The notes below the pieces were generated by a model. The model ran no database searches and had not been told where the DNA came from. It saw only the letters and a program-made list of their open reading frames with translations. Positions 2,523 through 37,559 of a stretch of 64,000 nucleotides of DNA are shown in pieces. Position 1 is the stretch's first letter. The number at the start of each line of letters is the position of its first letter. This DNA comes from Acidobacteriota bacterium (GTDB lineage: Bacteria; Acidobacteriota; UBA6911; RPQK01; JAJDTT01). Position numbers and translations under genes: made by a program. The stretch lies in contig OZ242374.1 of the NCBI GenBank assembly GCA_965209055.1, forward strand, positions 4,544,001-4,608,000, read 5' to 3'.

Positions 2523-2876
2523 CTACAGGAGCAGCCAGACGGCAGCCGCCGTCCCTGCAATGGCGGAACCGTAACAGAGGACCGAAATGGGCGTCTTGAC
2601 GGCTCCGCCTCCCAGGTCGATCAGGATGTGCCGGAGACGGTGGGCCGCGTGAAAGAGAGGCAATGAAATGACAACCAGCAGGTAGAGCCGAACCAACGGG
2701 TTCTCCAGGAGTTCCCGAACCCGTTCGTAGGAAAGCGTCTCGATTGGAATCCAGCCCAGGCCGATGCCCAAGCCGGTCACCAGGATGTGGACCGGGACCA
2801 GGAAGGCCGCCACCGTGCCGCCCGCCGAAAAGAGTCCCCACCAGATGGGGTCGGTTGTCTTGAGCCGGACCCCCAT
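2523..2876 (-). CDS. frdD: Fumarate reductase membrane anchor subunit D
   Basis: PIWWGLFSAGG and FHAAHRLRH motifs, 3 TM segments, last gene of the frd operon. Confidence 0.88.
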   Translation of the reverse strand: MGVRLKTTDPIWWGLFSAGGTVAAFLVPVHILVTGLGIGLGWIPIETLSYERVRELLENPLVRLYLLVVISLPLFHAAHRLRHILIDLGGGAVKTPISVLCYGSAIAGTAAAVWLLL

Positions 2877-2877
2877 C

Positions 2878-4016: not shown

Positions 4017-4036
4017 GCCGGAATCTCGCTCCTGGC

Positions 4037-10651: not shown

Positions 10652-12109
10652 ATGTACAGAAGGACCGCAGTTCTGCTGTGTCTCTGGTCCGGAATGGCGG
10701 CGGCCGCTCCGCTGTCGGCCGCGGGCATCATCGGCGTCACTCGGGGTGGCGCCGATTTAAAGGTGCCGCCAACCGAGCCTGCCGACGCCACCTGGCGATA
10801 CGGCCTCGGCACCGCCCATCAGATCGGGCCTCGCCAGGCGGCTCTGTTTTGCGGCATCCGCCGCGAATACGGTCCCGGAGTCGATTTCGAGATCGGCACC
10901 GACGCGGTCCTGTTCGACGACCTCTCCGACGTGCGGGCCGAACGGGCCGTCGTCCTCTCTCGAAATCACCTCGAACCCAATCCCAACTCCGATCCTCCCG
11001 GAAGGCCGGCCGTCATGGTGAAGTATCCGGTCCAAGGCGGATTCATTCCCCTGGGGGCGAGGCGGGCAAACGGGTCCCCGTATGAACAAGGGGGAACCGG
11101 GTTCGGAGTGGCCAGCGCCATCGGCTGGCCGGCAGCCGATTCAGATGCGTCCGGCGACAAAGTCTGGCGCTTCGAGAATCCTCGGGGGGTCGAACCCTTC
11201 GGGGCAAACGAACAACACAGGTATTTCGAGGTTCAACAATACGCGTTCGACGGCGAGGCGTTCCGGGTGGTCGAGACCCGCAAGGTGGGCGAGACCGAGC
11301 TCGTTTCCGGCTGGCGGGTCACCAACCGCGGTCTGGGCCCGGCCATCCTTGACGGAGAAGACCTGATCATGGGAATGGTGGGGGCGCCTCTGGCGGCGAC
11401 CGGTTCCGTGCCGTCGAAACCGACCGGAGCGGTCCTCGTACGTTGGGAGCATCGGAACGGAAAATGGGAAGCGTCGGACATCATCCCCGTGACCGGAGGG
11501 GACAACTCCTTCGAGCCCAGCGTGGCGCGCGACCGGGACGGGTCCCTCCTCTTCTGCGTGCGCGGCGGCAAGGAGCCGGACCACAACGACGTACGCATCT
11601 GGCGTTCCCGGGATCAGGGCCGGAATTGGGAACAGATCATCTACGTCCGGGGGATCATCGGCAGCACGCCCATCAACCTCAACCCGGCCACCGACGGCAG
11701 CCTCTACGTCGCGTCCAACCTCTACCAGGTTCACATGCACCCCTGGCCCCACACCTACCGTCTCCCCCGGGACCGCCGGGGGAATCAACGGGGCGGCGGT
11801 TGGTTGCGCGAGACCCTGGCGCTGTGGCCTTTGCGGCCGGACCGGACAGGTCTGGAGACACCCATCATCGCCCGCGACTGCCGGAGTGAGTTCGGCACTC
11901 CTCCCGGAGGCTCCACCTGGAACGTCGATCACCCCATCGCCGTGAACCTGAGACTGCGGGACGGCCGCTGGCACAACGTCATGGTGACCCGGATCGTGGA
12001 GTACGGAGAGATTGTCCGCCAATTGGGCCCGGCTCCCCAGTCCGGAGCCTATCTTGAGGAGGTCCACTCCTCGGGCAAACCGGTTCCCGCCTGGCGATTC
12101 GAAGACTAG
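10652..12109 (+). CDS. Secreted BNR/Asp-box (sialidase-like) beta-propeller protein
   Basis: Signal peptide, FEPSV..DRDGSLL...RG, Asp-box SRDQGRNW. Confidence 0.6.
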   Translation: MYRRTAVLLCLWSGMAAAAPLSAAGIIGVTRGGADLKVPPTEPADATWRYGLGTAHQIGPRQAALFCGIRREYGPGVDFEIGTDAVLFDDLSDVRAERAVVLSRNHLEPNPNSDPPGRPAVMVKYPVQGGFIPLGARRANGSPYEQGGTGFGVASAIGWPAADSDASGDKVWRFENPRGVEPFGANEQHRYFEVQQYAFDGEAFRVVETRKVGETELVSGWRVTNRGLGPAILDGEDLIMGMVGAPLAATGSVPSKPTGAVLVRWEHRNGKWEASDIIPVTGGDNSFEPSVARDRDGSLLFCVRGGKEPDHNDVRIWRSRDQGRNWEQIIYVRGIIGSTPINLNPATDGSLYVASNLYQVHMHPWPHTYRLPRDRRGNQRGGGWLRETLALWPLRPDRTGLETPIIARDCRSEFGTPPGGSTWNVDHPIAVNLRLRDGRWHNVMVTRIVEYGEIVRQLGPAPQSGAYLEEVHSSGKPVPAWRFED

Positions 12110-12125
12110 GAGCCTTGGTCGCGCC

Positions 12126-12186
12126 TAAGCAGCCCGCGGTAGAAGTCGTCACGGCAGTCGACCGTCCCTGCATCCCCGGCGGATTG
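12126..12186 (-). mobile_element. MITE fragment (one end), homologous to the reverse complement of ~37685-37744
   Basis: AAGTCGTCACGGCAGTCGACCGTCCCTGCATCCCCGGCGGATTG is nearly identical to the reverse complement of the intact MITE. Confidence 0.85.
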
Positions 12187-12461
12187 GTTCCGTGACGACC
12201 GTAAACAATGTATCATTAAAGGGATATGTATTTTGCAGCCACGCTATCCCCCCATTCTTTCCACCTGAACGAAACGGATGCCCTTGACCTTACGTGGCCG
12301 TGGATGCACGTAAGCCTTCAGTCAAGCCGTGGCGCCCGTCCCGTGCAGAATGTGTGTGAGGTCTGGCAAGGCGATCTGGAATGCACTATCTCCAAGGGCA
12401 TGGCAATACAGAACGGCAACGGACGCAAGGGCGTGGCGCTAGTCGAGGGGCCGGAGGAGCC

Positions 12462-12506
12462 TCGGAACTGAAAGTCCGTTGTTCTGCCCAACTGAGCTAC
12501 GGACTC
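12462..12506 (-). pseudogene. Degenerate tRNA 5' half (att-like remnant; Lys/Glu-like, identity uncertain)
   Basis: Minus strand reads GAGTCCG TA GCTC AGTTGGGCA GAAC A ACGGA CTTTCAGT TCCG: acceptor 5' strand, D arm and anticodon arm, but no T arm or CCA. Confidence 0.6.
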
Positions 12507-12526
12507 GATTCGATCTTTTCATCAGG

Positions 12527-12750
12527 TTATCCCAATTCTTCCCTCGAATCATTTCCCCTCGTTTCCTGTTGCATTTGTAACTCTTCGTTAGCCTGTGCCA
12601 CCCCAATGCTCTGAAGTGCATGGGAATTGACGTACCTGGCATATCGCGTCGTCGTGCTGGTCGCCGAGAGTCCGATTAGCTTCTGCACTGTCCTCATGCC
12701 CACCCCCTGCATCAACCACTAGCTGCAGCGGAATCGCCTCAGATCGTAGC
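12527..12750 (-). pseudogene. Tyrosine recombinase/integrase C-terminal remnant
   Basis: YDLRRFRCS*WLMQGVGMRTVQKLIGLSATSTTTRYA is a decayed HDLRH...V..VQ.LLGH....T.RYA; in-frame TAG at 12719-12721. Confidence 0.75.
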
Positions 12751-13038
12751 ACAGGGGAGCACGATCCAGTGACATACGGAGCGCTTGTACAGCTCGGCGG
12801 GCGGCGACCTGTGAAAAACCATCAGAGGGAAGAAATCTGGAGTCCTAGTCAGAATATTTGCAGATTTGGATGGGAAACGGGCTGCTGAAACGTTAACCGG
12901 CGGCAGAGACCAGATCGCCTGCACAAAGGAGCAGGGGGCGGGATGATAGTAGGGATGTTGGTCTCCGTCGTGGCGAACCCACTATGGGATCGAGCCGAAT
13001 AATATTTCGCTCACTTTCAGAAAGGAGCCAAAAAGACA

Positions 13039-13480
13039 ATGTACCTTCACGAGATCCTTCCGGTTTGTGAACCGAAAACATACAAGCTCCACTTCGCGGA
13101 GAACGACGGTTACGTAGCACCGGTCGATGTCTTTGCCAAGGATTGAACCGAATGGCAGGCTTGGCAAGAGTACCGGTGGTCGCCGGAACGCAACGAGTTC
13201 AACCGGCCCCTCATATTTGCTCTGGCCCACTTTTACTATTATTCACGTCCAGAAAAGGAGGCCTGGCTTTTTGGAGGCATCTTCCACGTCGTGGCACGTC
13301 ATGAAGCCAGCTACCAAGTCAAGTGGACGCGCCAAGCCGAGCCGTTCGTTGGCCGTCTCATACATCGACTCCCAGGCGGACACAATCTTTCCATACGCTC
13401 GAATCTCGAAACTTACTACCGACATTTTGAGGTTCTGGAAATTCTGAGGTAGCCGTACTCCGGGTAGCGCCTGTTTCCCC
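13039..13480 (+). pseudogene. Pseudogene resembling the N-terminal domain of a GIY-YIG nuclease family
   Basis: AAAGGAG RBS; MYLHEILP..YKLHFA..P.DVF..D*.EWQAWQEY..N.FNRPLIF..WLFGGIF.V..FVGRL..FEVLEILR*PYSG*..FP; stops at 13144, 13450, 13465. Confidence 0.6.
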
Positions 13481-13524
13481 CGCCCCCTCCGCTTAAAGAG
13501 CCAGCACACTGGACAAAGGCGTAT

Positions 13525-15001
13525 CAGCCCGTGGGAACACTCCGGGAATCAACGCCAGACCTCTGACATAAAATGACACTATGGTGAGGGATAGAAACCG
13601 TCTGGAGGACGGCAGCGAGGGATGTGCCTGGCGACTCAGAAACTGCCGCGGAGTCCGAGGCATCCCTTCTACAAGCGGTTGAACCAAGTGCTGGAGAATG
13701 CCGGTTTCGACCCCTTCGTGGAAGCGCGGTGCGCACGGTTTTACGCCGACGGGATCGGGCGACCGAGTCTGCGCCCGGGACGGTACTTCCGGATGCTGTT
13801 GGTAGGGTACTTTGAAGGACTGAATTCGGAACGGAGCATCGCTTGGCGAGTGGCGGACTCGATGAGCCTGCGCGCTTTTCTGGACTTGGATCCGGAGAAG
13901 ACGCCCCCGAATCACTCGACCGTGTCGTGCACCCGGCGACGGATCGATGTCGAGACGCACGGGGAGGTGTTCACCTGGGTGCTCAAGCAGTTGGCGCAAG
14001 CGGGACTGGTGCAGGGGAAGACGATCGGGGTCGACGCGACGACGTTGGAGGCGCACGCGGCGCTACGCACGCTGGTGCACCGGGACACGGGGCAGGACTA
14101 CGAGACGTTCGTGAAGGGACTGGCAAAAAGCTCGGGAGTCCCGACAACGACCCGGGAGGAGCTGGTTCGGTTCGACCGGAAGCGAAAGAAGAAGACGAGC
14201 AACCGGGAGGGGATGAATCCGCACGACTCGGACGCGAAGACCACGAAGCTCAAGGACGGGCGGACCCGTCTGGGGCACAAGGTGGAAGAGGCGGTGGACC
14301 TGGAGGCGGGAGCGGTGGTGGCGGTGACCGCACCGGAGGAGTTGGGCGATCCTCAGACTCTGGGGAAAACCCTCCGGATGGCGCGGGAGGAAGTGGGGGC
14401 GGTCGGGTCGGGCGCACAGGTCCGGGAAGTGGTGCCGGACAAGGGATACCACAGCAACGAGACGGTGCTGGAGTTGAAGGAACTGGGATTGCGAGGGTAT
14501 CTGTCGGAAACGGATCGGGACCGGCGCAACTGGAAGGGGAAGAACCGGAAGTACCAGGCGCCGGTGTACGCGAATCGGAGACGGATTCGTGGCCACCGGG
14601 GCCGCCGGATGCAGCGGTAGCGGAGCGAGTTGGTGGAGCGGCCGTTCGCGCATCGGATCAGGACGGGCGGGTTGCCCCGCATCTTCGTCCGGGGCCACGA
14701 CGATGTCCGGAAGCGATTGCTGATCCATGTGTGTGGTTTCAACCTGGGCCTGCTGATGGGCCATCTGACGGGGATCGGTACGCCCCGGAGTCTGCAGGAC
14801 CGCATCCGGGCGCGTCTTTTTTCGGTTCTTGGGGCGACAATGGGCTACTGGCTCGGCTGGAATCGACTCTCGGAGCGCTTCTGGGCGCCGACCGGGCCCG
14901 ATTCGCTGTTTAGGGCTCCTCGGACCCATCAACATACCATCTCCACGTCAGCTTGCCGAATGGACAATAGTCGGAGAAATCAGGACTTTTGCCACGGGCT
15001 G
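13525..15001 (+). mobile_element. IS1182/IS5-like insertion sequence (inactive)
   Basis: Imperfect TIRs CAGCCCGTGGGAACACTCC (13525) and GGACTTTTGCCACGGGCTG (14983-15001) around a DDE transposase. Confidence 0.8.
13622..15001 (+). pseudogene. IS1182-family DDE transposase interrupted by a nonsense codon
   Basis: HPFY.RLN, GRPSL.PGRYFRMLL.GYFEG, GVDATTLEA, DKGYHS. TAG at 14618-14620 splits it; the frame resumes with VERPFAH...VRKRLLIHVCGFNLGLLM. Confidence 0.88.
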
Positions 15002-16772: not shown

Positions 16773-16889
16773 CCCAGCGGACTGCGTTGCGATTCGGGCA
16801 CATATTCCCAGTATGCACTCGAATCGCGCCTTGTCCGGCGGGCACAGGAACGGTTTCGGTGCTCGCGAGACTTTCACCACGGCCCCCTA
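16773..16889 (-). mobile_element. MITE fragment (other end), homologous to the reverse complement of ~37579-37696
   Basis: GCGGACTGCGTTGCGATTCGGGCACATA...GACTTTCACCAC is nearly identical to the intact MITE and ends at the hflC stop codon. Confidence 0.88.
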
Positions 16890-17816
16890 CTGGGCGCGTT
16901 GGATGTGCCTGAGCAGCTCGCCCCTGGTGGTGAGGATCAGGATGGTCTTGGCGTCCACGCCCCGCTCGTAGGTCTCCATGCTCTTCATGAAGGCGTAGAA
17001 CGAAGCGTCCCGGTTGTACGCCTCGGCGTAGATCTGGGTCGCCTCGCCGTCGGCCCGGCCGCGGGTTTCCTGAGCCGTCTTGTACGCTTCCGACTGAATC
17101 CGCTGCAGCTCCCTCTCCCGCTCGCCCCGGATCCGGGCAGCCTCGCCCTGACCTTCAGACCGGTAGCGCTCGGCGATCCGGTTGCGTTCGGCGATCATGC
17201 GGGCAAAGACGTCCTTCTGAACCTCTTCCACGTAGTTGATCCGCTTGAGCTGGAGATCGATGAGCTCGATCCCGAAGTCGGCCACCTTGGGCGTAGCGGT
17301 CTCCAGAATTTCCCGGGTGATGGCCTGACGCCCGGTCTCGATGGTCTCCAGCACCGAGGTCTCCTCTTCGGCTTGGTCCTGGGCATCCTGGGGCTCCCGG
17401 TTGCTGGTCCGGACCACCTCCACCAAGTCGTGGCGGGCGATGGCATTGCGGGTCTCGCCGTCCAGGATGTCGTCCAATCGGGACTGTGCCCTGGGTTCGT
17501 CCCGCATCCGCTCCAGGAATCGGAGCGGATCGCTGATGCGCCACCTGGCATAGGTGTCGACCCAGATGAACCGCTTGTCCTTGGTCGGCATCTGGTCCGC
17601 GTCTCCGTCCCACTCCAGAAAACGCTTGTCGAAATAGTTGGCCGTCTGGATGAAGGGAAGTTTGAAATGCAGACCCGGATCGGTGACCGGATTGCCCACC
17701 GGTCTGCCCAACTGGGTGATGATGACCTGCTCGGTTTCGTTCGTGACGTAGGTCCCGTTCACCACCAGGGCGAGGACGGCCACAACCAGGATCAGATAGA
17801 GCTGCCGGCCCTTCAT
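16887..17816 (-). CDS. hflC: Protease modulator HflC (SPFH)
   Basis: N-terminal TM, EQVIITQLG.P, PGLHFKLPF, TKDKR, RMIAERNRIAE.YRSEG, FYAFMKSMETY. Confidence 0.92.
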   Translation of the reverse strand: MKGRQLYLILVVAVLALVVNGTYVTNETEQVIITQLGRPVGNPVTDPGLHFKLPFIQTANYFDKRFLEWDGDADQMPTKDKRFIWVDTYARWRISDPLRFLERMRDEPRAQSRLDDILDGETRNAIARHDLVEVVRTSNREPQDAQDQAEEETSVLETIETGRQAITREILETATPKVADFGIELIDLQLKRINYVEEVQKDVFARMIAERNRIAERYRSEGQGEAARIRGERERELQRIQSEAYKTAQETRGRADGEATQIYAEAYNRDASFYAFMKSMETYERGVDAKTILILTTRGELLRHIQRAQ

Positions 17817-18823
17817 TGGTCCGTTCCCTCCGCCCGCGATCGGCCCGGGATCAACTTCTCCAGAGACTCCATGGGGAGCAGCGGGATGACACCGTCGGCA
17901 TCCTGGTCCAGAAACAGTTTGCGGCCTGATAGAGGCAGGATCTTCTGCATGGTCTCCAGGTACATCCGCCGCCGGGTGACCTCGGGCGCCCGGCGGTAGG
18001 CGTCGTGCAAGGACTTGAAGCGGGAGGCGTCCCCCTTGGCCTGGTTGACGCGTTCGAGGGCGTAGCCCTGAGCCTGCAGAACGGCCTGTTCCGCTTCACC
18101 CTTGGCCCGGGGGATCACCTTGTTGTACTCGGCGCGAGCCTCGTTGATGAGGCGGTCCATCTGTTGCTGGGCCTGGTTCACCTCGTCCCACGACGGTTTC
18201 ACGGGATCGGGGGGATTCACGTTCTGCAAGACGACCTGGTCCACGGTGATGCCGGTCTCATACTGCTTGCAGAGATTCTGAAGCTTCTGCTCCGCGCTGT
18301 CCTCGATTTCCTGGCGGCCCACGGTCAAGACCTCGGTGACGGTCCGGTCTCCCACCACCTCGCGCATCACCGCTTCGTTCATGTCCCGAAACGTCTCCTG
18401 GACGTTCCGGACCTTGAAGAGAAAAAGGTAGGGATCGGTGATCCGGTACTGGACGATCCACTCCACCACCGCCACGTTCAGATCTCCGGTGAGCATCAAC
18501 GACTCGTCCAGGAACCGCTTGGAGGCGTATCGCGTCCGGATCTCCGGCTGGGCGGTCCGAAACCCGAATTCCTGCTTGAGCTGACGCTGCACCGGGACTT
18601 TCAATACATCTTCCACGAAGGGGAGCTTGAAGCGAAGGCCCGGTTGGGCGGAGCGAACATGACGCCCGAAAAAAAGGACGACTCCGACCTCTTCCGGCTG
18701 CACCTGGTAGACGGTCCCGAAGGCCGTAATCGCCGCCAGAACGACCAGGATTCCTACTCGGACATACCTCCAATTGATTTTCGGAGGACGAAACTCGGGC
18801 ATGTCGAAAACTTGGTCAGCCAT
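17813..18823 (-). CDS. hflK: Protease modulator HflK (SPFH)
   Basis: EVGVVLFFG, MLTGDLN, VQYRI.DP..FLF, IPRAKGEA, P.VTR.RMYLETM; ATGA overlap with hflC. Confidence 0.92.
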   Translation of the reverse strand: MADQVFDMPEFRPPKINWRYVRVGILVVLAAITAFGTVYQVQPEEVGVVLFFGRHVRSAQPGLRFKLPFVEDVLKVPVQRQLKQEFGFRTAQPEIRTRYASKRFLDESLMLTGDLNVAVVEWIVQYRITDPYLFLFKVRNVQETFRDMNEAVMREVVGDRTVTEVLTVGRQEIEDSAEQKLQNLCKQYETGITVDQVVLQNVNPPDPVKPSWDEVNQAQQQMDRLINEARAEYNKVIPRAKGEAEQAVLQAQGYALERVNQAKGDASRFKSLHDAYRRAPEVTRRRMYLETMQKILPLSGRKLFLDQDADGVIPLLPMESLEKLIPGRSRAEGTDQ

Positions 18824-27990: not shown

Positions 27991-28464
27991 CTAACGCCCC
28001 ACATCCCGAATCGACTTCCCAAATTCGTTTTCCCAGTCGCTGACCATCTCGAAATCGCTCTGGGTCACCCTCCAGGATCCGAACTCCCGCTCCAACAGGA
28101 AGGACTGGCGGGTGTTGCGGTCGTTGTAGACCGTCTCGGTCAGGACGCGGACCTGATCCGGACTCAGTTCCTCCTGGCCCAGAATGGCCAGACCCTTGAC
28201 GGCGCTTCCGCGCCTCCGGAGCCACTCCGACAGCCAGGGCGCCGAGTCCCGCGCCAGCAGGTCTTCCAGGCGCCTTCTCAGGTCTCCGCCGAAGCACTCC
28301 TTGAGCGCCGCGACGTCACCGCGCTCCATGGCCTGAACCATGGCGATCAGGACGTCGTCCGGATTCTCTTCCCTCTCCGTGTCCTTGACGGGGGTCTCGC
28401 GTGTGACGAAATAGAGGAAACAGCCGAGGATCGCCAGCAGGGAGAACCATTTCCTGGGTTCCAT
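27991..28464 (-). CDS. Hypothetical membrane-anchored protein (possible NTF2-like fold), last gene of the ATPase-SPFH operon
   Basis: N-terminal TM, AMERGDVAALKECF, LEREFGSWRV; GGAGA RBS. Confidence 0.6.
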   Translation of the reverse strand: MEPRKWFSLLAILGCFLYFVTRETPVKDTEREENPDDVLIAMVQAMERGDVAALKECFGGDLRRRLEDLLARDSAPWLSEWLRRRGSAVKGLAILGQEELSPDQVRVLTETVYNDRNTRQSFLLEREFGSWRVTQSDFEMVSDWENEFGKSIRDVGR

Positions 28465-28500
28465 CTCCGTCTCCCCGAGGGTCCGCTTCGCCGGCGTCCC

Positions 28501-29424
28501 TCACTCCTCCACGGCGAAGATATCCAGGTCCAGGCCCTGCCGGCTTCCGGCATCGTCCAAAATGACCTTGCGGGTGCGGGGCAGGATCTCCTCCATGGCC
28601 TCCAGGAAGAGGCGCGCCGTGGTGACGGTGGGATGGCGCCGGTATTCTCCCCACAGGCTCAGGAAGTGCTGCGACTCGCCCTGGGACCGGTCCACCACCT
28701 CCCGGCCGTAGATTCGGGCCTGCTGGAGGTTTTCCTGAGCCTGGCCGCGGGTTCGAGGCAACAATTCGCTGGCGTATCCCCGGGCCTCCTGCACGATCCG
28801 GTTCCGGTCCTCCCTGGCGTTGGCCACCTCCAGGAAAGCATCGCGGACCTGTTCGGGAGGACGGACCTGTTCCAGGGCCAGGGCGGTTACGGCCACGCCC
28901 AACGCCAAGCGGTCCGCCTCCTGCTGGAGATCCTCCCGGACACGATTCTGGATCTCGATGCGGCCCGTGGTGAGCACGTCGTCGACCCCCCGGATCGCCA
29001 CGGCTCGAGAGAGGGAACGATAGAGCAGGACCTCCAGGACCCGGGGAAGATCGCGGGATCGATACAGATACCGTCCCGGATCCTGGATGTAGTACTGAAT
29101 GGAGGCCCGGAACTGGACCAGGTTCTGGTCGCCGCTCAACAGGGAGTCGTCCTCCGTCAGGACCCGGACTCCCAAGGCCCGGTCCAGATCGGTGCCCCCG
29201 ACGGTGAGACGCTGGGCCTCATTCGTCTTCAACAGGATCACCTCTTCCAGAGGGTACGGAACCGCGTACTGCAGACCCGGTTGGATCCGCTCCGGAAGCA
29301 GCCGGCCCAACCGCAACTTCACCGCCTGCCGATCGGTGGGGACATAGTAGATCCCGGACGCCACGTACAGGGCGACCAACACGGACGACAGCAGCAGGCT
29401 GTTCCGCCGCAACCAGTTTCTCAC
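28501..29424 (-). CDS. HflK-like SPFH protein (second paralogue)
   Basis: TM + SGIYYV, PGLQY..PYP, LLSGDQN, PPEQVRDAF.EV..ARED, LPRTRGQA, RLFLEAME. Confidence 0.85.
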   Translation of the reverse strand: MRNWLRRNSLLLSSVLVALYVASGIYYVPTDRQAVKLRLGRLLPERIQPGLQYAVPYPLEEVILLKTNEAQRLTVGGTDLDRALGVRVLTEDDSLLSGDQNLVQFRASIQYYIQDPGRYLYRSRDLPRVLEVLLYRSLSRAVAIRGVDDVLTTGRIEIQNRVREDLQQEADRLALGVAVTALALEQVRPPEQVRDAFLEVANAREDRNRIVQEARGYASELLPRTRGQAQENLQQARIYGREVVDRSQGESQHFLSLWGEYRRHPTVTTARLFLEAMEEILPRTRKVILDDAGSRQGLDLDIFAVEE

Positions 29425-30368
29425 CGGGCCAACCTTCCGTTACGCCCTTCGGTCAGCAACTTGAGCAACTCCGAGTCGGCCGAGAGGACCGCGGTGGTCT
29501 TGTCGTCCAGGATCCGCTGGTACGCTTCCAGCGTCCTGACCATCTGGTAGAACTCGGGATCCCGCGAATAGGCCCTTCCGTAGATCCGGGCGGCCTGCGC
29601 GTCCGCCTCGCCCCGGATGATCTCCGTCTGCTTGTAGGCCGCCGACAGCAGTTCCTCGGCCTGGCGGTCCGCCTCGGCCCGGATCTTGCGGGCCTCCTCC
29701 TCTCCTTCAGCCCGGTATTTCTTGGCGATGCGGTCCCGTTCCGCCCGCATCCGGGCATAGACGCTCTCCCGGTTCTGGGTCGGCAGGTTGATCCGCTTCA
29801 CGTCCACTGACGCGATCCGAATTCCGTAACGTTGGCGGGAGACTTCATCGCACTCGCGCGTGAGTTTCTCCATCAAGGGTTCCAGGCGCACCTGTTCCGG
29901 GTCCGTGGCCACCAGCTCGGAGAGCTCGGTCCGGCCCAGATCGGCGGAGACCGACGACCACACGATGTCGTGCAGGCGCATCTCGGCCCCGGAGCGATCC
30001 CCGACGGCCCGCAGATACCGGAGCGGCTCCTGGACCTGCCAGATCACGTAGGTCTCCACCAGGAGATTCTTCTTGTCCCGGGTCAGATACTCGGAAGGCC
30101 GGGGATTGTAGAGATGCAACCGTTTGTCGATGCGCGTGAGCCCCTGGAAGAACCATTTGAACCGGAGTCCCGCCTCCTTGTACTCGGCAACGGGGCGTCC
30201 GAACTGGGTCACCAGGACCATCTCCTCCTCGTTCACCGTGAACAGGCTCCGGTACGCCAGAATCAACAGGACCACGATCCAGAAGACCTTGCTTCGGATC
30301 ACCCTTCCGGTTCCGACCGATTGCCTGCTTTTCTCGCCGTCCGCGGGCGCCTTCACTGGGTAGTGCAT
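29421..30368 (-). CDS. HflC-like SPFH protein (second paralogue)
   Basis: FTVNEEE..LVTQFG.P, LTRDKKN, RMRAERDRIAKKYRAEGEE, DPEFY...RTLEAY; start ATG at 30368. Confidence 0.88.
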   Translation of the reverse strand: MHYPVKAPADGEKSRQSVGTGRVIRSKVFWIVVLLILAYRSLFTVNEEEMVLVTQFGRPVAEYKEAGLRFKWFFQGLTRIDKRLHLYNPRPSEYLTRDKKNLLVETYVIWQVQEPLRYLRAVGDRSGAEMRLHDIVWSSVSADLGRTELSELVATDPEQVRLEPLMEKLTRECDEVSRQRYGIRIASVDVKRINLPTQNRESVYARMRAERDRIAKKYRAEGEEEARKIRAEADRQAEELLSAAYKQTEIIRGEADAQAARIYGRAYSRDPEFYQMVRTLEAYQRILDDKTTAVLSADSELLKLLTEGRNGRLAR

Positions 30369-30375
30369 CTCCGGG

Positions 30376-33300
30376 TCATCTCCCACTGGCGGAGACCGCC
30401 TTCTCCAGGTCTCCCAAATTGAACACCGAGTTACGGAACAGCAGCATCTTCCGGCGTCCCGAGCTCTGGTCCAGGATGTACTTCTTTTTCCCTGCCAAAC
30501 CCGCCTCGACCGCCTCCAGGTAGACACGGATCCGGGTCGTCTCGGGCGACATGCGATACGCGCCGTAGCGCAGATCGAAGCGGCGGGACTCGCCTTCGGA
30601 ACGTTGGACCCGGGAGACCGCATAGGCCCGGGCCTGGATCTGGCGCCCCTGGGCCTCACCCGCCGCGATGGGGACCCGCTCGTTGGCGTAGGCATGAGCC
30701 TCGTTGATCATGCGGCTCTTCTGCTCCAGGGCGCTGGCCACGTCCCGGAACGCCCCCACCACCTCCAGCGCGGGATGCACGTCCTGGAGCTGGAACGCCT
30801 GGATTCGAACGCCCAAGCCCAGACGATCCGCCTCCGATCGGACCATCTCCATCGCCGCGCTCTCGATGGTGCGCCGGTCGAGGGCCAGAATCCGGTCCAG
30901 CTCCATGGTGGCCGCCACCTGGCGCAAGGCGCTCTCGCACAGGAACTGCAAGGTGGATTCCAGGCTCGAGCTGGCGAAGAGGTATTGATGGAAGTCGGCG
31001 ATGGTGTAGTGGACGACCGCGTTCACCTCCACCAGGTACTCGTCTCCCGTGAGCATGAGCGCCTCGTCTTCCCTCCGCAGATAGCGTCCCTGCCGATGCT
31101 GAATGTTCCACTCGTAGGCGGCCGGCCCCCCTTCGACCTCGGCCGCCGAGTCGGAGATCCGGAAACCCAGCTCCACGGTGCGTACCTGCGCCGGCCGGAG
31201 CCGGTGGAGGGTCTCCACGGGCCAAGGCGCCACGTAGTGAAGGCCCGATCCCAATGAACCCTCGACCAGCCGGCCCAGTCGCTGGACCACTCCCACCTCT
31301 TCGGGCGCCAGGATCCGGATCCCGGAGAGCAGGTACGCCAGGACGGCAGCCGCCCCGGCCCAACGCAGCAGGGACCCTTTGCGATGGCCTGCCCAGTGAA
31401 GGGAGTGCCTGAAGAGATGGGCTGGATTCCGATGGTGCAACCAATGGAGCACATCGTGCTGGAGATGGTGGACCTCGTGGCGGAAGTGGTGGTACCGGTG
31501 GCCCAGGTGGTGCAACCGGTGGCGAAGCCGGTGGGGAAGAAAGTCCGACGGCCGGCGATCCAGCAGCTTGAGGGAATTCATCAGGACCAGGAACGAGGAA
31601 CCCTGGTGGACGACGGCGGCGCCCACGGCGCTCAGGTACCCCCAGAAGGCGGCCATGACCGCGGCCAGGTTGAAGACCAGACCGAACCAGAAGATGTTGT
31701 CGTGAATGGTCTTGACGGCGCGGCGGCTCATGCGGATCAACGGTTTCAGGCGGTCGAGCCCCCCATCCCCGACCAGAACCACCCCCGACGCTTCGGCTGC
31801 GATGTCGGTCCCCGTGTCCCCCATGGCGATGCCGACGTGGGCGGCGGCCAGGGACGGCGAGTCGTTGACGCCGTCTCCCACCATGGCCACCCGGAGGCCC
31901 TGGAGCTTGAGATCCTCCAGCTGGGCCAGCTTCTCCTCGGGAAGCAGGCCGGCATGCACCTGGGCGATCCCCACCTCGCGGCCCACCCGAAGGGCCGCCT
32001 TTTCGTTGTCTCCCGTCAAGAGCAGAGACTTCCGGATCCCCAATTCGCGCAACTCGGCCACCGCCTGGTTGGCCTCTTGCCGGGGCTGATCCTGCAGGAG
32101 GAGGACGCCGGCGGCCCGCTCTTCCCATCCCACCAGGACGGCGATGCCTCCTTCGGACGCGGCCTGATCCAGGACCTCCCGTTCCGGCTTGGAAAGGGCG
32201 ACTCCCTGCTGTTCCAGGAAGCGGGCGCTGCCGACGAGTACGGTCGGACCCGCCTCATCGCCGGTGGAAGGCAGTGTTCCTTCCAGTCCCAGACCCGCGT
32301 GCCTTTGGACCGACTCCCCCGGCGAGACGTCGAGCCCGCGGCTCTCGGCCGCCTCCCGAATGGCCTTGGCCAGCAGATGCTCGGAGAAGAATTCCAGGGA
32401 GGCTGCCCAACCCAGGATCGCATCGGGACGGAACTCTCCGAAGGGAATCACCCGGACCAGCTCGGGCCGGCCCCGGGTGAGGGTGCCGGTCTTGTCGAAG
32501 GCGAAGCAGTCGATCTTGGAGAGCTCCTCGATCTGGACCCCGCCCCGAACCACGATCCCCTTCCGGGCCAGGGCGCTGATGGTGGCCAGCACCGCCGCCG
32601 GCGTGGCCAGGACCATGGCGCAGGGACAGGCCACGATGAGGATCGCCACGGAGCGCATCCAGTCGCCCGTCACCACGTAACAGAGAACCGCGATTCCCAG
32701 CACCAGGGGCAGGAACCATTGGGCGTAGCGGTCCGCGGTCCGCTGGATGGGAGCCTTGCTCTCCCGGGCCTGGCGCACCAGCTCCATGATCCGGTTCAAC
32801 ACCGTGGTTTCGCCCACCTGGCGGGCGCGGACCAGGAGCCGGGCGGTCTGGTTCACGCTGCCGGCATAGACCTGGTCGCGGACCGACCGCTCCCGGGGCA
32901 CCGACTCGCCCGTGATGGAGCTCTCGTCCAGGAGCGATTCCCCTTCCAGGATGGCGCCGTCCACCGGGACCCTCTCGCCGGGATAGACCACCACCCGGTC
33001 CTCCGGCCGGAGTTCTCCCAGAGCCACCTGCTCCTCGCCGTCGTCTCCCCAGCGGTGGGCCTCCTGGGGCAACATCGAGAGAAGCTGCGTCAGGTCGGTG
33101 TGGAACCTTTGGGAGGCGTAGGCTTCCAACGTCTCGCCCACGAGCATGATGTAGACCACCTCGGCGGCGGCCAGGTACTCGCCCACGTAGAGGGCGGCCA
33201 GAGCCGCCAGAGTCACCGCCTGATCGGCGCTGATCCGCCGGTAGATCACGTCCTGGAACGCCCGGTGGAAGGTGCTGTACCCGTAGAGGAAGGTCAGGAC

Positions 33301-33447
33301 GATGCCCAGGTCCCAGGGGAAAGGCGAAACGACCCACTCCTGCCAGTAGGCCACCAGGAGCAGGCCGCCCAGGACCAGTCCCGCAAAGCGCCAGCGGAAG
33401 ACGGCCCCTTCGTCCAGATGGAACGTGTGTCCGAGGGGAGGGATCAT
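30376..33447 (-). CDS. P1B-type heavy-metal ATPase fused via a His-rich linker to an HflK-like SPFH domain
   Basis: ITGES, ACPCAM, FDKTGT, SEH, LTGDN, GDGVND, HQGSS; then the His-rich segment, a TM, EVGVVQRLG, MLTGDE, DVHP..VV.AFRDVASA, R.YLE, all in one frame. Confidence 0.92.
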   Translation of the reverse strand: MIPPLGHTFHLDEGAVFRWRFAGLVLGGLLLVAYWQEWVVSPFPWDLGIVLTFLYGYSTFHRAFQDVIYRRISADQAVTLAALAALYVGEYLAAAEVVYIMLVGETLEAYASQRFHTDLTQLLSMLPQEAHRWGDDGEEQVALGELRPEDRVVVYPGERVPVDGAILEGESLLDESSITGESVPRERSVRDQVYAGSVNQTARLLVRARQVGETTVLNRIMELVRQARESKAPIQRTADRYAQWFLPLVLGIAVLCYVVTGDWMRSVAILIVACPCAMVLATPAAVLATISALARKGIVVRGGVQIEELSKIDCFAFDKTGTLTRGRPELVRVIPFGEFRPDAILGWAASLEFFSEHLLAKAIREAAESRGLDVSPGESVQRHAGLGLEGTLPSTGDEAGPTVLVGSARFLEQQGVALSKPEREVLDQAASEGGIAVLVGWEERAAGVLLLQDQPRQEANQAVAELRELGIRKSLLLTGDNEKAALRVGREVGIAQVHAGLLPEEKLAQLEDLKLQGLRVAMVGDGVNDSPSLAAAHVGIAMGDTGTDIAAEASGVVLVGDGGLDRLKPLIRMSRRAVKTIHDNIFWFGLVFNLAAVMAAFWGYLSAVGAAVVHQGSSFLVLMNSLKLLDRRPSDFLPHRLRHRLHHLGHRYHHFRHEVHHLQHDVLHWLHHRNPAHLFRHSLHWAGHRKGSLLRWAGAAAVLAYLLSGIRILAPEEVGVVQRLGRLVEGSLGSGLHYVAPWPVETLHRLRPAQVRTVELGFRISDSAAEVEGGPAAYEWNIQHRQGRYLRREDEALMLTGDEYLVEVNAVVHYTIADFHQYLFASSSLESTLQFLCESALRQVAATMELDRILALDRRTIESAAMEMVRSEADRLGLGVRIQAFQLQDVHPALEVVGAFRDVASALEQKSRMINEAHAYANERVPIAAGEAQGRQIQARAYAVSRVQRSEGESRRFDLRYGAYRMSPETTRIRVYLEAVEAGLAGKKKYILDQSSGRRKMLLFRNSVFNLGDLEKAVSASGR

Positions 33448-33460
33448 GATGGCGCCGTCC

Positions 33461-33527
33461 ACTATACAAGCCGTTCTGGCCGGTTCAAAGAGACCGCTTG
33501 ATCCCCCTGAGCGGGGCTGGATACAAT
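33461..33527. promoter_or_regulatory. Divergent sigma70-like promoters
   Basis: Minus strand TTGAAC-16-TATAGT (33488-33461); plus strand TTGATC-18-TACAAT (33498-33527). Confidence 0.45.
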
Positions 33528-33577
33528 CCCCCTCCCAAGGGGGACCCCCATAGCCGGCGCCTCCCGGAGCCCAGCCC

Positions 33578-35371
33578 ATGCTCGATCGATTCCAGAGGCG
33601 GAACGAACCTGTCTACCGGGCCGATCTGGACCGCTGTCAGCCGGCGAGCGCCCTCAGCCGGACGGCTCGCCGATTCGCCTGGCGAATGCTGGACTTCGAG
33701 ACCGACAAGGCCGCCGGAACGCTCCTTTTCGCCGGCGAGGAGACGGAAGCCGCCGAGATCACCTATCCCCTTGAAGTCCAAGGATGGCACGACATTTATA
33801 TCGGCCTCTTCAACAACGCATGGCGCCCCTATGAGGCTCAACGGGTCTTCGCCCGGCTCAGCGGAGATCCGGCGTTCTCGCTCGTCTATCTTCCGATCCC
33901 CAGCGAACGCGCCTGGGGTGTTCCGGGCGACGATCAGAAACAGGGCCCCAGAATCCAGGACGTCTTCTGGAAGACCGCCGACCTGACAGGCCAGACCGTG
34001 GCGTTCCGCCAACCGTGCCAGCGGGCGGTGCCCGACGAACAGGCTTTCGGCAACATCAGCGGCAAGGTCTGGCTCGCCTACATCAAGCTGGTCCCCCTCA
34101 CCGGCGAAGAGGTCGAAGACCTGGAACTCGACAGGTCCGACCCGGCCAATCGCCGGCTGTTCGCCTACAACGACTCCTGGTTCGACGGCGACCGGGGTTC
34201 CCGAATGCCGGGAGGCCGGTCCGAAGAGACGGCCATCCAGGCCCAACTGGAACCCTACCGGAACACCGATTTCGGGCGCATCTACTGGGACGGCGCTCAC
34301 GGGGACATCTGCAACTACCTGACGCGCATCGGGCGGGTCTGGGACGGCCGGGGCATCCGGACCCAGGATCCCCCCAGGCGTTACGACCGCCTGGCCCGGG
34401 AAGCCTGGGACGACTACGTGGAACGCGGAATCTATCCCTTCCGCGTCGCCGCAGACTTCGCTCACGAACTCGACATGGAGTTCCACGCCTGTTACCGAAT
34501 CGGGTGGCGACCCTTCTACTGGCCGCCGCCGTTCGACGAATTCAATCGCGGCGGACTCTACGACCAGTGCCCCGAGCTCCGTTGCGTGGGCCGCGACGGA
34601 CGGCCCTCCCTCGGCCTGTCGTTTGCCTTTCCCGAAACCCGCCGCTACGTCCTCTCATTGATCCGGGAGATGACCGGCTATCCCATCGACGGCGTCGCCA
34701 TTCTCTACAACCGTCAGCCCCCCTTCCTCGAATACGAATGGCCGTTGGTGGAGGGCTTCCAGGAGGAGTTCGGAGTGGACCCCCGCCGCCTGCCCGAAAC
34801 GGATCCACGCTGGCTGGCCTACAAGAGCCGGATTCTCACCGGTTTCATGGAAGACCTGAAGGCCGAACTGGCTGAGGCCGCCCGGGAGCAGGGCCGGTCC
34901 GCACCGTATCCGGTCACCGCCTGGCTGTTCGGCTCCCGCGAGGAGAACCTGCTTTACGGGATCGACGTGGAGCGGTGGGTTCGGGAGGGCTTGGTGGACA
35001 CCCTGATCCCCTACACCTCGGCCCGGAGCCTGTTCAGCTTCGAGACCGCCTGGGAAGACGCAGCCGACGTCACCTATTGGGTTCGCATGGCCCGTGCGGG
35101 AAATTGCCGGTTGGCGCTCAATGTGATGCCCCGAAACATGGACGCCACACAGTATCGGAACAAGGCCGGCCAGCTCTACTCCCTGGGAGTCGAACACCTG
35201 GCCTTCTGGGACACCGCCATTGCCGGGGGCCGGGCCTCGGAGACACTTGCCCGTCTGGGTCACCATGAGGAGATCGCCGGCTGGATCATGGCCGGCCGTC
35301 CCGAACCCCAGTCGACTTCCAGTCCGCTATGGAAGTTGGGAGAGTGGGACCTGAGCTATTTCCCCGAATGA
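33578..35371 (+). CDS. Hypothetical GHL10/DUF187-like TIM-barrel glycoside hydrolase
   Basis: AHELDMEFHACYR, LSFAFPETR, Y.IDGV, GIDVERWVREGLVD.L. Confidence 0.6.
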   Translation: MLDRFQRRNEPVYRADLDRCQPASALSRTARRFAWRMLDFETDKAAGTLLFAGEETEAAEITYPLEVQGWHDIYIGLFNNAWRPYEAQRVFARLSGDPAFSLVYLPIPSERAWGVPGDDQKQGPRIQDVFWKTADLTGQTVAFRQPCQRAVPDEQAFGNISGKVWLAYIKLVPLTGEEVEDLELDRSDPANRRLFAYNDSWFDGDRGSRMPGGRSEETAIQAQLEPYRNTDFGRIYWDGAHGDICNYLTRIGRVWDGRGIRTQDPPRRYDRLAREAWDDYVERGIYPFRVAADFAHELDMEFHACYRIGWRPFYWPPPFDEFNRGGLYDQCPELRCVGRDGRPSLGLSFAFPETRRYVLSLIREMTGYPIDGVAILYNRQPPFLEYEWPLVEGFQEEFGVDPRRLPETDPRWLAYKSRILTGFMEDLKAELAEAAREQGRSAPYPVTAWLFGSREENLLYGIDVERWVREGLVDTLIPYTSARSLFSFETAWEDAADVTYWVRMARAGNCRLALNVMPRNMDATQYRNKAGQLYSLGVEHLAFWDTAIAGGRASETLARLGHHEEIAGWIMAGRPEPQSTSSPLWKLGEWDLSYFPE

Positions 35372-35405: not shown

Positions 35406-37559
35406 TTGAATCGGCGGCCCTGGGCTCAACTCGCGATTCTGTCAGTCCTTCTGCCGGCAAGTCTTCCGGCTCAGTCGGGAGAGCCGTTCTTCAATCCCTA
35501 CGGCCTGACCGAAGATACCCTCGACGGCCTGCAAATGCGGAACCCCCGCCACCGGCTCTTCGTCGAGTTCTTCTCGGCGATGCTTCTGAACCAGCGGGTG
35601 GATCGGGAGGCGGCCTTCGCCGTCTACGGGCAGGTCCGGCCTCTCACTCTCCTGCAGAGGAACGTCTACGGAGACCAAGCCGTCTTCGCGGCCGCAAACG
35701 TGAGGGCTCAAATCAGCGCGGGTCTCTGGAATCTCTCTTCGCCGGAACTGCTCAAGGTCGACGTAAACCCTCCGGTAGTCCTGGTCCAACCGTCGCGCCT
35801 GCAATTCACCCGGGGATTGGAGAATCGGGCGTTGGTCCTGGTTCGGAATCGATCCCAAGTCCAGCAGAACGCGAGCCTGGAACCGGCGGAGGGTCCGTTG
35901 TATTTCCGGCCTCGGCAAGTCCGGTTGGCCCCCGGGGAAGTCCATCCTCTCATTGTCCGAGTCTGGGGTGAGGACGGAGAGAGCCTGGATCTCAATGTCC
36001 GATCCGGACGCCGCCTTCTTCGGGTGAGTCTTCCCCTGGCATGGAATCCCGCCGGTCGCCTCCAGATCCGGGTCTTGGACGAGTCCGGCCGGCATGTCCC
36101 GGCCCGGGTGGAGGTGGTGGGTTCCGACGGCCTGGGACGGGCCCCCTCGGGAACCTATCTCCGCTATACGCCGATGCGGGCGGGCCCCTACTTTCACACC
36201 CGAGGAATCAGCAGCCTGGTCCTGCCGGTGGGAAAGACCCGAATCCGTGTCGCGAGGGGATTCGAGCACCGCTACCAGGAACGGATCGTCGACCTGCAGC
36301 CTGGCGGACGCGGCACACTGGAATTTCGCTTGGAGCGCTTCCACGACGCCGCCGCCCGCGGCTGGTACTCGGGAGACATCCACATCCACCCCAACCTGGT
36401 CCACAAGACCATGGACCAGGTCATCAATCCCGTCGACATCCGCCTCCAGACGGTGGCGGAGGACCTGAACGTAGCCAACCTCCTGGTCTGCAATTCGCAG
36501 GGCGCGGTCCTCTACGACCGCCAGCACTTCACCGGCGCTCCCCACCCCCTGAGTACACCGCGGCATATCCTCTACTGGAGCCAGGAGCTCCGTCCGGCCC
36601 TCTACGGCCACATCGGCGTCCTGAACCTGAAGCGCTTTCTGGAGCCCCCGTATAACGGATTCCCCGCCAGCTTCTTCCCTTTCGACTACCCGTCCAACGC
36701 CACCGCCGTCAGGGAAGTTCGCAAGGAAGGGGCCGCCGTCTTCTACGTTCACCCTTCCCTGGGGCGACAGCGCTGGATCCCGGTCGACGCCGCGCTCGGA
36801 ACCGTCGACGGCATGGAGATCCTCGGCTTGTCCAACACCCAGAGTTCCAACACCCTCTACCGCCTGCTGCTCGACTGCGGCTGGCGCCTCAGCGCCGTGG
36901 CCGGCACCGACGCCTTCAACAACGTCCGCCGGCACAAGGTCCTGGGCGGGGATCGCGTCTACGCCTACACGGGGGACAAGCTGTCTTACGAGGACTGGGT
37001 TCGCGCACTGCAGCAAGGGAGGACGTTCGTCAGCAACGGACCTCTGCTTTACTTCCGCGTCCAGGGCCGGCTTCCCGGAAGCGAGATCGCCCTGGACGAA
37101 CCCGGACCTGTGGAGTTGGAGGTGGAGGCGTATTCCCAGGTCCCCATGGAGAAGGTGGAAATCCTCTTCAACAGCGAGGTCCTGCAGGAGATTCCCCTGC
37201 AAGACGGCACCAAATTGAATCATCGGGGGACGATCCGGGTTCCGTCCAGCGGCTGGATGGCCGCCCGGATTTGGGGAGAAGAGCATCCATTGGTGGTCAA
37301 CAACCCGGAACTCTTCGCCCACACGACGCCGGTCTATCTCACGGTGGGAGGGCGGCCCTACGCGGATCCCGAAGCCCTCGAATTCTTCCTGGAGAGGTTC
37401 CAGGAAATGCGCCGGACCTCCCTCGCCGGAGGCTCTTTCGAGAGCCTCCATCAGCAGCGCGAGGTTCTGGGCCAGTTGGCGGAAGCGGAGAAAATCTACC
37501 GGGAGCGGCTGAAATGGTCCCGCAATACTCCTGCCGACGCTGCGGACTCCGGTCCATGA
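35406..37559 (+). CDS. CehA/McbA family metallohydrolase (PHP domain), secreted
   Basis: GWYSGDIHIH, YGH, YVHP, AGTD, GRTFVSNGP, FAHTTPVY. Confidence 0.82.
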   Translation: MNRRPWAQLAILSVLLPASLPAQSGEPFFNPYGLTEDTLDGLQMRNPRHRLFVEFFSAMLLNQRVDREAAFAVYGQVRPLTLLQRNVYGDQAVFAAANVRAQISAGLWNLSSPELLKVDVNPPVVLVQPSRLQFTRGLENRALVLVRNRSQVQQNASLEPAEGPLYFRPRQVRLAPGEVHPLIVRVWGEDGESLDLNVRSGRRLLRVSLPLAWNPAGRLQIRVLDESGRHVPARVEVVGSDGLGRAPSGTYLRYTPMRAGPYFHTRGISSLVLPVGKTRIRVARGFEHRYQERIVDLQPGGRGTLEFRLERFHDAAARGWYSGDIHIHPNLVHKTMDQVINPVDIRLQTVAEDLNVANLLVCNSQGAVLYDRQHFTGAPHPLSTPRHILYWSQELRPALYGHIGVLNLKRFLEPPYNGFPASFFPFDYPSNATAVREVRKEGAAVFYVHPSLGRQRWIPVDAALGTVDGMEILGLSNTQSSNTLYRLLLDCGWRLSAVAGTDAFNNVRRHKVLGGDRVYAYTGDKLSYEDWVRALQQGRTFVSNGPLLYFRVQGRLPGSEIALDEPGPVELEVEAYSQVPMEKVEILFNSEVLQEIPLQDGTKLNHRGTIRVPSSGWMAARIWGEEHPLVVNNPELFAHTTPVYLTVGGRPYADPEALEFFLERFQEMRRTSLAGGSFESLHQQREVLGQLAEAEKIYRERLKWSRNTPADAADSGP

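Follow-up and report, generated by a model that had tools for sequence, protein, structure and literature searches.

A P1B-type metal ATPase fused to an HflK-type SPFH subunit: a conserved gene cassette and a candidate scaffolded metal exporter

How the rings formed by SPFH proteins (HflK/C, prohibitins, stomatins, flotillins) affect the proteins that they surround is a long-standing question, and the clients of these rings are usually transient and hard to define. The locus described here raises this question in a particular form. In a stretch of 64,000 nucleotides (nt) from the genome of an Acidobacteriota bacterium (contig OZ242374.1 of assembly GCA_965209055.1, positions 4,544,001 to 4,608,000, hereafter called the window), four genes on the minus strand make up a cassette. 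The first one is a fusion gene of 1023 codons, whose product carries a P1B ATPase and an HflK-type SPFH protein in the same polypeptide, and it is followed by an HflC-like gene (HflC2), an HflK-like gene (HflK2) and a small gene encoding 157 amino acids (aa). What does a metal pump do on the N-terminus of an HflK subunit? The answer favoured here, with somewhat more confidence than doubt, is that the four genes encode one membrane machine, in which a P1B export pump would be tethered to a dedicated HflK/HflC-type ring.

The fusion gene and its conservation

A first-pass annotation of this DNA, made by a model from the letters and their open reading frames (ORFs), had described one 1023-aa frame joining a complete P1B ATPase to an HflK-type SPFH domain, and the ORF, Pfam and NCBIfam agree with that description. 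Pfam places E1-E2_ATPase at residues 124-296, Hydrolase at 312-537 and Band_7 at 714-920, and NCBIfam assigns residues 77-628 to the heavy-metal P1B ATPase model TIGR01525 (543.3 bits, cut-off 346.25) and residues 710-1001 to the hflK model TIGR01933 (178.5 bits, cut-off 159.4). The TGES, CPC, DKTGT and GDGVND motifs listed in the annotation can all be read in the translation, and the Pfam scan of the protein found no HMA domain, as it had also held. The close packing of the genes was likewise read correctly, with a 7-nt gap between the fusion gene and HflC2 (30369-30375), a GTGA start/stop overlap between HflC2 and HflK2 (29421-29424) and a 36-nt gap before the small gene (28465-28500). All three SPFH subunits of the cassette exceed the NCBI HflK or HflC equivalog cut-offs. 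In public databases, the fusion proteins are annotated as 'HflK' or as 'cadmium-translocating P-type ATPase'. The coordinates of all features are collected in Table 1.

Table 1. Features of the cassette and of the canonical hflKC pair, in window coordinates
Feature	Position	Strand	Basis
Fusion gene, 1023 aa: P1B ATPase, predicted cytoplasmic linker, transmembrane (TM) helix, HflK-type SPFH protein	30376..33447	minus	
P1B ATPase part, residues 1-628	31564..33447	minus	TIGR01525 543 bits; AlphaFold2 (AF2) helices; invariant columns in 59 sequences
Linker, predicted cytoplasmic, helical in the AF2 model; residues 629-693 (65 aa, 18 of them His)	31369..31563	minus	
Ninth TM helix, residues ~690-715, counterpart of the sole TM helix of HflK	31303..31380	minus	hydropathy scan; AF2 690-707
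HflK-type part, predicted periplasmic, residues 710-1023	30379..31320	minus	TIGR01933 178.5 bits; AF2 model
Loop P775-x-A-Y-E-W-N-x-Q-H-R-x-G-R788 within SPFH1	31084..31125	minus	alignment
HflC2, HflC-type subunit, 315 aa, N-terminal TM helix	29421..30368	minus	TIGR01932 198.3 bits (cut-off 134.4)
HflK2, unfused HflK-type subunit, 307 aa, N-terminal TM helix, without W[EN]xxH	28501..29424	minus	TIGR01933 196.4 bits
Fourth gene, 157 aa: predicted N-terminal TM anchor and NTF2-like domain	27991..28464	minus	AF2, Foldseek
Sigma-70-like promoter of the cassette, TTGAAC, 16 nt, TATAGT	33461..33488	minus	consensus scan
Canonical hflK	17813..18823		TIGR01933 281 bits
Canonical hflC	16887..17816		TIGR01932 264 bits

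The AF2 model of the fusion protein (mean predicted local distance difference test score, pLDDT, of 78) contains eight TM helices in the pump (residues 15-35, 47-68, 74-88, 91-123, 233-260, 263-295, 563-601 and 607-626), with which a hydropathy scan agrees. These helices would correspond to MA, MB and M1-M6, leaving the C-terminus of the pump in the cytoplasm. Because the last pump helix would thus end in the cytoplasm and one more membrane crossing follows, the SPFH part is predicted to be periplasmic, as in HflK. The ninth helix that provides this crossing aligns weakly to the TM segment 78-123 of Escherichia coli HflK. Beyond it, the model presents the SPFH domains (710-892), a helix of 73 residues (894-966), a further helix (968-983) and C-terminal strands, with the coiled-coil part modelled at pLDDT 50-68. 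The portion after the pump is therefore predicted to have the whole HflK build, that is, a TM helix, SPFH domains, a long helix and C-terminal strands. Its best match in the Protein Data Bank (PDB) is E. coli HflK (7vhp_E, E 1e-28), and the alignment of HflK2 to the same chain spans residues 85-349.

The long frame is not confined to one assembly. A 10,953-nt contig obtained from a run of another study spans positions 27991-33600 of the window with 56 substitutions, and keeps the fusion frame intact, its sole indel being one inserted base at the intergenic position 33544; the frameshift or assembly artefact that the annotation had named as a possible undoing of its claim was thus not observed. 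In a protein search limited to lengths of 562-1791 aa, the SPFH part matched 182 proteins at E <= 1e-3, and those listed (120 of 182) combine Hydrolase with Band_7, nearly all of them together with E1-E2_ATPase, at a length of about 1000 aa. An alignment of 59 fusions, which are about 40% identical, shows no variation at the catalytic residues and at many SPFH positions.

The gene order is conserved as well. From species-representative genomes 48 loci were fetched, of which 43 have the fusion, the other five being three plain ATPases and two plain hflKC. HflC2 lies downstream of the fusion in 40 of these 43 loci and HflK2 is present in 37, with all misses (3 and 6, respectively) corresponding to contig ends. 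A homologue of the small gene was detected in 34 of the 35 loci that have DNA past HflK2 (upstream in L022, on the opposite strand in L020, undetected in L038). The record titles of the cassette loci name Acidobacteriota of several orders, Armatimonadota, Abditibacteriales, Verrucomicrobiia, Lentisphaeria, Planctomycetota, Candidatus Zipacnadia and one 'Clostridia' metagenome-assembled genome, meaning that the four-gene order recurs in loci of several phyla, as a survey of architecture and neighbourhood, proposed with the annotation, was to establish. Within Acidobacteriota the distribution is patchy: of 401 genomes sampled, 20, from four of the listed families, have the full-length fusion in one frame; the 401 include three unpublished ones (G029, G054 and G157), which are not part of the 20. 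Two further copies in the phylum are broken or partial: the one in G398 has a TGA inside the match and the one in G191 matches just profile positions 423-981.

A scaffold shared with other exporters

A search of the full library with phmmer, using the SPFH part alone as query (residues 691-1023), returned 567 representatives at E <= 1e-30. Many of the matches were about 550-620 aa long and were matched at their C-terminal end. A Pfam scan was made of 71 of the 150 listed matches, corresponding to those of 440-900 aa plus five of the seven exceeding 1040 aa. Among the scanned proteins, 40 combined Cation_efflux, the family of the cation diffusion facilitators (CDF), with Band_7, 19 combined a P-type ATPase with Band_7 (14 being fragments), one carried ArsP_1 and Band_7, and 11 had Band_7 only. 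The metagenome loci with full-length CDF::HflK, which were found with a single-protein query, resemble the ATPase cassette in their layout: an HflC2-like gene comes next in 10 of 10 and a third, K-type SPFH gene is present in 9 of 10, the tenth locus ending at a contig edge. The fusion of the same scaffold module to CDF and ArsP families speaks more strongly than any other observation for scaffold and metal export being functionally linked.

The origin of these scaffold parts was addressed with an SPFH tree of 78 rows (LG+C20; SH-aLRT supports given in brackets). On the HflC side (99), canonical HflC (99) is sister to HflC2 (90). The HflK side (99) holds canonical HflK (99), HflK2 (93) and a clade of all transporter-fused domains (94), inside which fusions to ATPase, CDF and ArsP are intermingled and poorly resolved. 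The fused HflK domain and HflK2 are accordingly not orthologous to canonical HflK, and the separate clades indicate that the cassette subunits are old, specialised paralogues. This had been suspected in the first-pass annotation for the downstream SPFH genes, and the phylogeny that it had called for indeed puts HflC2 and HflK2 outside the canonical clades. The fused scaffold part has a single origin, while the transporter attached to it varies.

The annotation had also noticed a separate canonical hflKC pair at 16.9-18.8 kb of the window, whose equivalog scores are well above those of the cassette copies (Table 1). A separate canonical hflK or hflKC was found in 8 of 11 cassette genomes (G000, G001, G002, G005, G201, G241, G301 and G386), and this coexistence argues for a separate role of the cassette.

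The fused SPFH parts are further set apart by a loop inserted between two SPFH1 strands, which is their most conserved stretch, with Y778, E779, W780, Q783 and H784 invariant in the 59 aligned sequences. The corresponding W[EN]xxH motif occurs in 58/59 ATPase fusions and 21/31 CDF fusions, and in none of the HflK2 (0/22) and HflC2 (0/18) sequences. The insertion aligns at the E. coli HflK loop that bears R141 and E142, the residues 141/142 themselves not being alignable; R141, E142 and R185 are the positions at which, according to the excerpted text of PMC13220708, HflK was mutated in order to break its binding to FtsH. Because the E. coli assembly encloses FtsH and the loop occupies the FtsH-contact position, by analogy it should face the ring interior, near the membrane. 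As the motif is common to fusions with unrelated transporters, the transporter itself is an unlikely partner for it; we infer that the partner is something shared by the fusions, most simply the exported metal ion, for which the Glu and His residues would be ligands, or a common protein. The elements that are new here are the fused HflK clade common to P1B, CDF and ArsP-type exporters, the W[EN]xxH loop, the predicted NTF2-like product of the fourth gene and a membrane metal site of the pump that suggests a divalent metal.

Two further arrangements may be recorded. At L127:1886-4060 and in L136 (approximately 2461-4048), an unfused P1B ATPase with CPC lies directly upstream of a CDF::HflK cassette, which puts two exporter types beside one scaffold set. 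The verrucomicrobial genome G005, besides having the ATPase::HflK cassette, encodes a second SPFH trio on contig 57 (L079:2314-8101); the members of the trio have 615, 322 and 360 aa, and the first carries a 300-aa N-terminal part to which Pfam assigns no family. Next to this trio comes the gene of an unfused P-type ATPase that shares 37% identity with the pump of the window, displays I-H-E-F-S and lacks CPC.

A proposed assembly and its alternatives

In the machine proposed, HflC2 would alternate with K-type positions, as HflC and HflK do in the E. coli ring, and at each K-type position there would be a fused subunit or an HflK2. With about 24 subunits and a size of about 20 nm, a ring like that of E. 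coli would be crowded by a pump on every K position, which could be the reason why a second, unfused K-type gene is always kept. HflK2 would therefore serve as a spacer, with the bulky pumps at some positions only. The ring would fence a membrane patch and form a periplasmic vault above it, export taking place inside, and the W[EN]xxH loops would line the interior wall near the membrane. The anchored NTF2-like protein may be an accessory periplasmic part of the ATPase-type cassette.

Several points weigh against this proposal. Assembly, stoichiometry and the position of the pump relative to the ring are taken wholly from homology to E. coli HflK/C, and the metal specificity of the pump is deduced from motifs only. 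The W[EN]xxH loop is missing from part of the CDF fusions and from the single ArsP fusion, and in the AF2 monomer model its pLDDT is below 50, a value that nonetheless matches what would be expected for a loop ordered solely with its partner. The fourth gene was detected in 0 of 10 CDF-type cassettes. A canonical hflK was not seen in 3 of the 11 cassette genomes (G003, G004 and G226, the completeness of G003 and G004 not being given), in which the cassette could do the canonical job too. Finally, the column equivalent to R185 of E. coli HflK holds R in 16/18 ATPase-fused and 10/10 CDF-fused domains, so that this ring might bind FtsH.

This last point bears directly on the alternative of FtsH-coupled turnover, according to which the variant HflK/C cage holds FtsH and the fusion puts the pump beside the protease, thereby controlling pump abundance or dealing with damaged pumps. 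In the excerpted text of PMC13220708, E. coli FtsH is described as binding the assembly through HflK only, and a P-type ATPase, MgtA, is given as one of its substrates. A similar arrangement here would agree with the conserved R column, with a clade-specific loop located at the position of the FtsH-contact loop of HflK, with the three cassette genomes in which no separate canonical hflK was seen and with the presence in this genome of two full-length FtsH genes (G000:C1:20686-22437 and 625951-627702; 904.4 and 904.9 bits). These FtsH genes, however, are found at 0.02 and 0.63 Mb, far from the cassette at 4.57 Mb, and FtsH was found neither near the cassette in the window nor among the 43 flanking ORFs of 12 diverse loci, which share no metal regulator or chaperone either. 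Moreover, in the R185 column the window's own fused copy has Q and HflK2 is variable (R5, E4, A4, S2, G2, T1), another motif, itself invariant, stands in place of the R141/E142 loop, and in most cassette genomes the canonical HflKC is kept for FtsH. A permanent tether of substrate to protease would also have no obvious rationale in three exporter families. On balance, we consider FtsH-coupled turnover unlikely.

Another alternative is a regulatory appendage without a closed cage. Stomatin-type proteins modulate channels, and in a comparable way small oligomers or arcs of the SPFH part and its two partners, enclosing nothing, could tune pump activity or local lipid order. The low confidence with which the coiled-coil part was modelled would be compatible with this, as would the open, nautilus-like and doubly open HflK/C forms reported in the excerpts of PMC13220708. 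Yet none of the three subunits is shortened with respect to HflK/HflC, the long helix and the C-terminal strands that close the E. coli cage being retained, and ATPase and CDF cassettes alike strictly maintain two K-type subunits and one of C-type. This suggests a defined hetero-oligomer and makes the appendage an improbable account. An artefact or a decaying gene, in which a frameshift or misjoin made the long frame, has no direct support beyond the existence of the broken copies in G398 and G191, and its probability is practically nil in view of the identical frame in the independent contig, the full-length frames in 20 sampled genomes of the phylum and the columns that stay invariant in divergent sequences.

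The reading of a dedicated ring with a tethered pump can be extended, tentatively and with more reservation than the machine itself, to a portable module. Under this extension, the set exporter::HflK+HflC+HflK would form an SPFH nanocompartment around members of three unrelated exporter families, with the loops on its inner wall, just over the membrane, taking up or passing on the exported metal ion. If true, the SPFH cage would be a chamber for handling metal in the periplasm instead of a regulator of proteolysis, and no earlier SPFH assembly would have had both a defined covalent client and a defined small-molecule cargo.

Among known systems, the E. coli HflK/HflC-FtsH assembly (PDB 7vhp, 7wi3, 9cz1, 9cz2, 9paw) offers the closest comparison, given that the cassette subunits pass the HflK and HflC models and have E. 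coli HflK as best PDB match. Shared features are the type II topology, the SPFH domains, the long helix, the C-terminal strands and the adjacency of K- and C-type genes. In contrast to E. coli, one K-type subunit of the cassette has a complete transporter attached N-terminally, two K-type subunits are encoded for one C-type, the fused clade has a new invariant loop at the R141/E142 position, and no linkage to FtsH is evident. The cassette coexists with a canonical pair in 8 of the 11 genomes examined.

A functional parallel is provided by the mycobacterial effluxosomes CtpC/PacL1, CtpG/PacL2 and CtpV/PacL3, described in the excerpted text of PMC13460109 as P1B exporters co-expressed with a small scaffold in membrane efflux platforms. 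That paper calls the PacL proteins scaffolds, and the words 'SPFH' and 'flotillin' are absent from its text. The PacL scaffolds are separate proteins, whereas the scaffold of the cassette is fused and of the three-subunit HflK/C type. The SPFH-NfeD pairs (QmcA/YbbJ) also combine an SPFH protein with a small membrane-anchored partner, and QmcA (8z5g) is a weak match of the fused part (E 2e-7). NfeD domains have an OB-fold, in contrast to the predicted NTF2-like fold of the small protein of the cassette, whose association with the SPFH subunits is a candidate one.

No published description of a transporter::HflK fusion or of this operon was found in the full-text literature, subscription journals lying outside the scope of that search, and the cassette, conserved but undescribed, can be regarded as an HflK/C-type system that varies in having its client attached covalently. 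Its interest lies in the fact that the fusion fixes the client to the scaffold, in three metal-exporter families and several phyla, which makes it possible to measure directly the stoichiometry, whether the client sits within the ring or outside it, and how transport responds to the ring. For metal biology, it would represent a scaffolded efflux design beside the mycobacterial PacL platforms.

Metal site, accessory gene and surroundings

The pump is a predicted metal exporter with every catalytic motif and a conserved membrane metal site. The catalytic motifs T179-E181 (TGE), D318-T322 (DKTGT) and G524-D529 (GDGxND), as well as C274-P-C276 in M4, are invariant in the 59 sequences. The membrane site combines this CPC with N593 in M5 and H614-Q615-x-S-S in M6, which can be written as N-X20-H-Q-X-S. 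The models do not point to one metal: besides TIGR01525, the pump passes TIGR01512 (Cd family, 460 bits against a cut-off of 313.5) and TIGR01511 (Cu, 405 against 397), and its PDB relatives score about equally (CopA 3rfu, 320 bits; sCoaT 7qbz, 303; ZntA 4umv, 288).

The signature of P1B-1 and P1B-2 includes CPC, and the M6 motif of P1B-4 is HEGST. The association of CPC with H-Q-x-S-S in M6 means that the site fully fits no signature of subclasses 1, 2, 4 and 6. The pump aligns nearly full length with sCoaT (7qbz, 7qc0; P1B-4) and ZntA (4umv; P1B-2), sharing CPC with P1B-2 and the His at the start of the M6 motif with P1B-4. It differs from sCoaT in having CPC instead of SPC and H-Q-x-S-S instead of H-E-G-S-T, and from ZntA in the absence of the D/K pair (read by eye). 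Both references are also set apart from the cassette protein by its equally high score to CopA, its lack of an HMA domain and the HflK on its C-terminus. As given in the excerpts of PMC13460109, the hallmark of P1B-6 is N-X18-H-N-X-(S/T) with SCA, and the zinc exporter CtpC combines CPC with N-X18-H-N-X-(S/T), which is near the site of the cassette.

CDF transporters, to which the sister fusions belong, carry divalent metals. On this ground, together with the CPC/N/HQxSS site and the H-E-x-S found in the nearest unfused relative, the metal of the pump is probably a divalent one (Zn, Co or Cd class) rather than Cu(I). The fusion also adds a P1B ATPase with an unclassified metal site to the family. 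The genome holds one further P1B ATPase besides it.

The linker between pump and ninth helix is modelled as two helices (639-670 and 675-688, pLDDT 53-71). The His-rich character emphasised by the first-pass annotation is real in this protein but does not extend to the family, where at least 5 His are found in 29 of 109 members and the median is 1. The His-rich stretch is thus a lineage-specific addition, plausibly serving as a cytoplasmic tail that binds metal.

For the 157-aa protein, no Pfam or NCBIfam family was found. In its AF2 model (pLDDT 81), a membrane helix at the N-terminus (4-21) is followed by a domain built of three helices and a curved sheet of five strands, and Foldseek relates the protein to NTF2-like structures (SgcJ 4ovm, SgcE6 4i4k, DUF4783) with E values of 3e-5 to 1e-3 and TM-scores of 0.4-0.6; several of these matches are NTF2-like proteins of unknown function. 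Its Atlas neighbours are unnamed acidobacterial clusters, DUF4864 and DUF4878. The modelled fold thus identifies the protein as a predicted membrane-anchored member of the NTF2-like (alpha+beta cone) group, and the domain is probably periplasmic because basic residues precede the TM helix. Distant homologues end in a conserved (I/V)PYG(T/A)P. A lipoprotein was also considered and rejected, as the Cys of the N-terminal helix is not conserved. Complex prediction of the NTF2-like protein with the SPFH parts of the three subunits gave scores of 0.02 and 0.15, below the mark of 0.32, which says nothing either way.

Given its absence from the 10 CDF-type cassettes, the fourth gene does not belong to the core of the module, and by its distribution it is specific to the ATPase-type cassette. 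In four CDF loci (L080:8663-9100, L082:7819-8253, L083:4056-4448 and L087:8675-9100), the third SPFH gene is followed by a different fourth gene, a conserved ORF of 130-145 aa with two CxxC pairs, zinc-ribbon-like, that replaces the NTF2-like one.

Regarding the start of the cassette, the ORF that contains the fusion gene is open over 30376..33579 (1067 aa), and the 1023-aa form begins at the ATG at 33447. In a tblastn search with the 1023-aa protein, eight genus-level relatives match from residue 1, and in these the 45 nt that precede this ATG (33448-33492) are invariant, the DNA farther upstream being unalignable. The 1067-aa reading from the first ATG was rejected on these grounds and because the invariant 45 nt and the promoter lie before ATG 33447. 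The sigma-70-like promoter ends 14 nt upstream of the fusion ATG, so that the cassette would have its own promoter and a nearly leaderless mRNA. A CCGG-N-CAG-N-ACGG stretch between the promoter hexamers (within 33448-33492) could be an operator.

The genes that neighbour the cassette are not conserved. Large DUF3604 proteins flank just two of the 12 diverse loci, from two acidobacterial lineages (L023:2790-5354; L035:3321-5927 and 11423-14038). In the window, a 717-aa secreted-looking protein without Pfam family is encoded two genes away from the cassette, on the opposite strand (35406-37559); by eye, its GDIHIHPN stretch recalls metal-dependent PHP-type hydrolases. Compared by BLASTP with the flanking DUF3604 proteins, it gave no significant match (best E 1.0 for L023; 0.004 over 47 residues for L035).

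In two sponge metatranscriptome libraries, contigs fall on parts of all four genes with 90-95% likeness, and so come from relatives. None of them spans the pump/HflK junction (31365-31563), and as such libraries can hold DNA they were not counted as expression. Short joints in the contig matches, with sides of 20-26 letters at conserved ATPase motifs, were taken as genes of other organisms. In several studies, the runs that contain 27991-33600 of the window, or sequences closely related to it, carry the label sponge metagenome, and the source organism is probably a sponge-associated acidobacterium.

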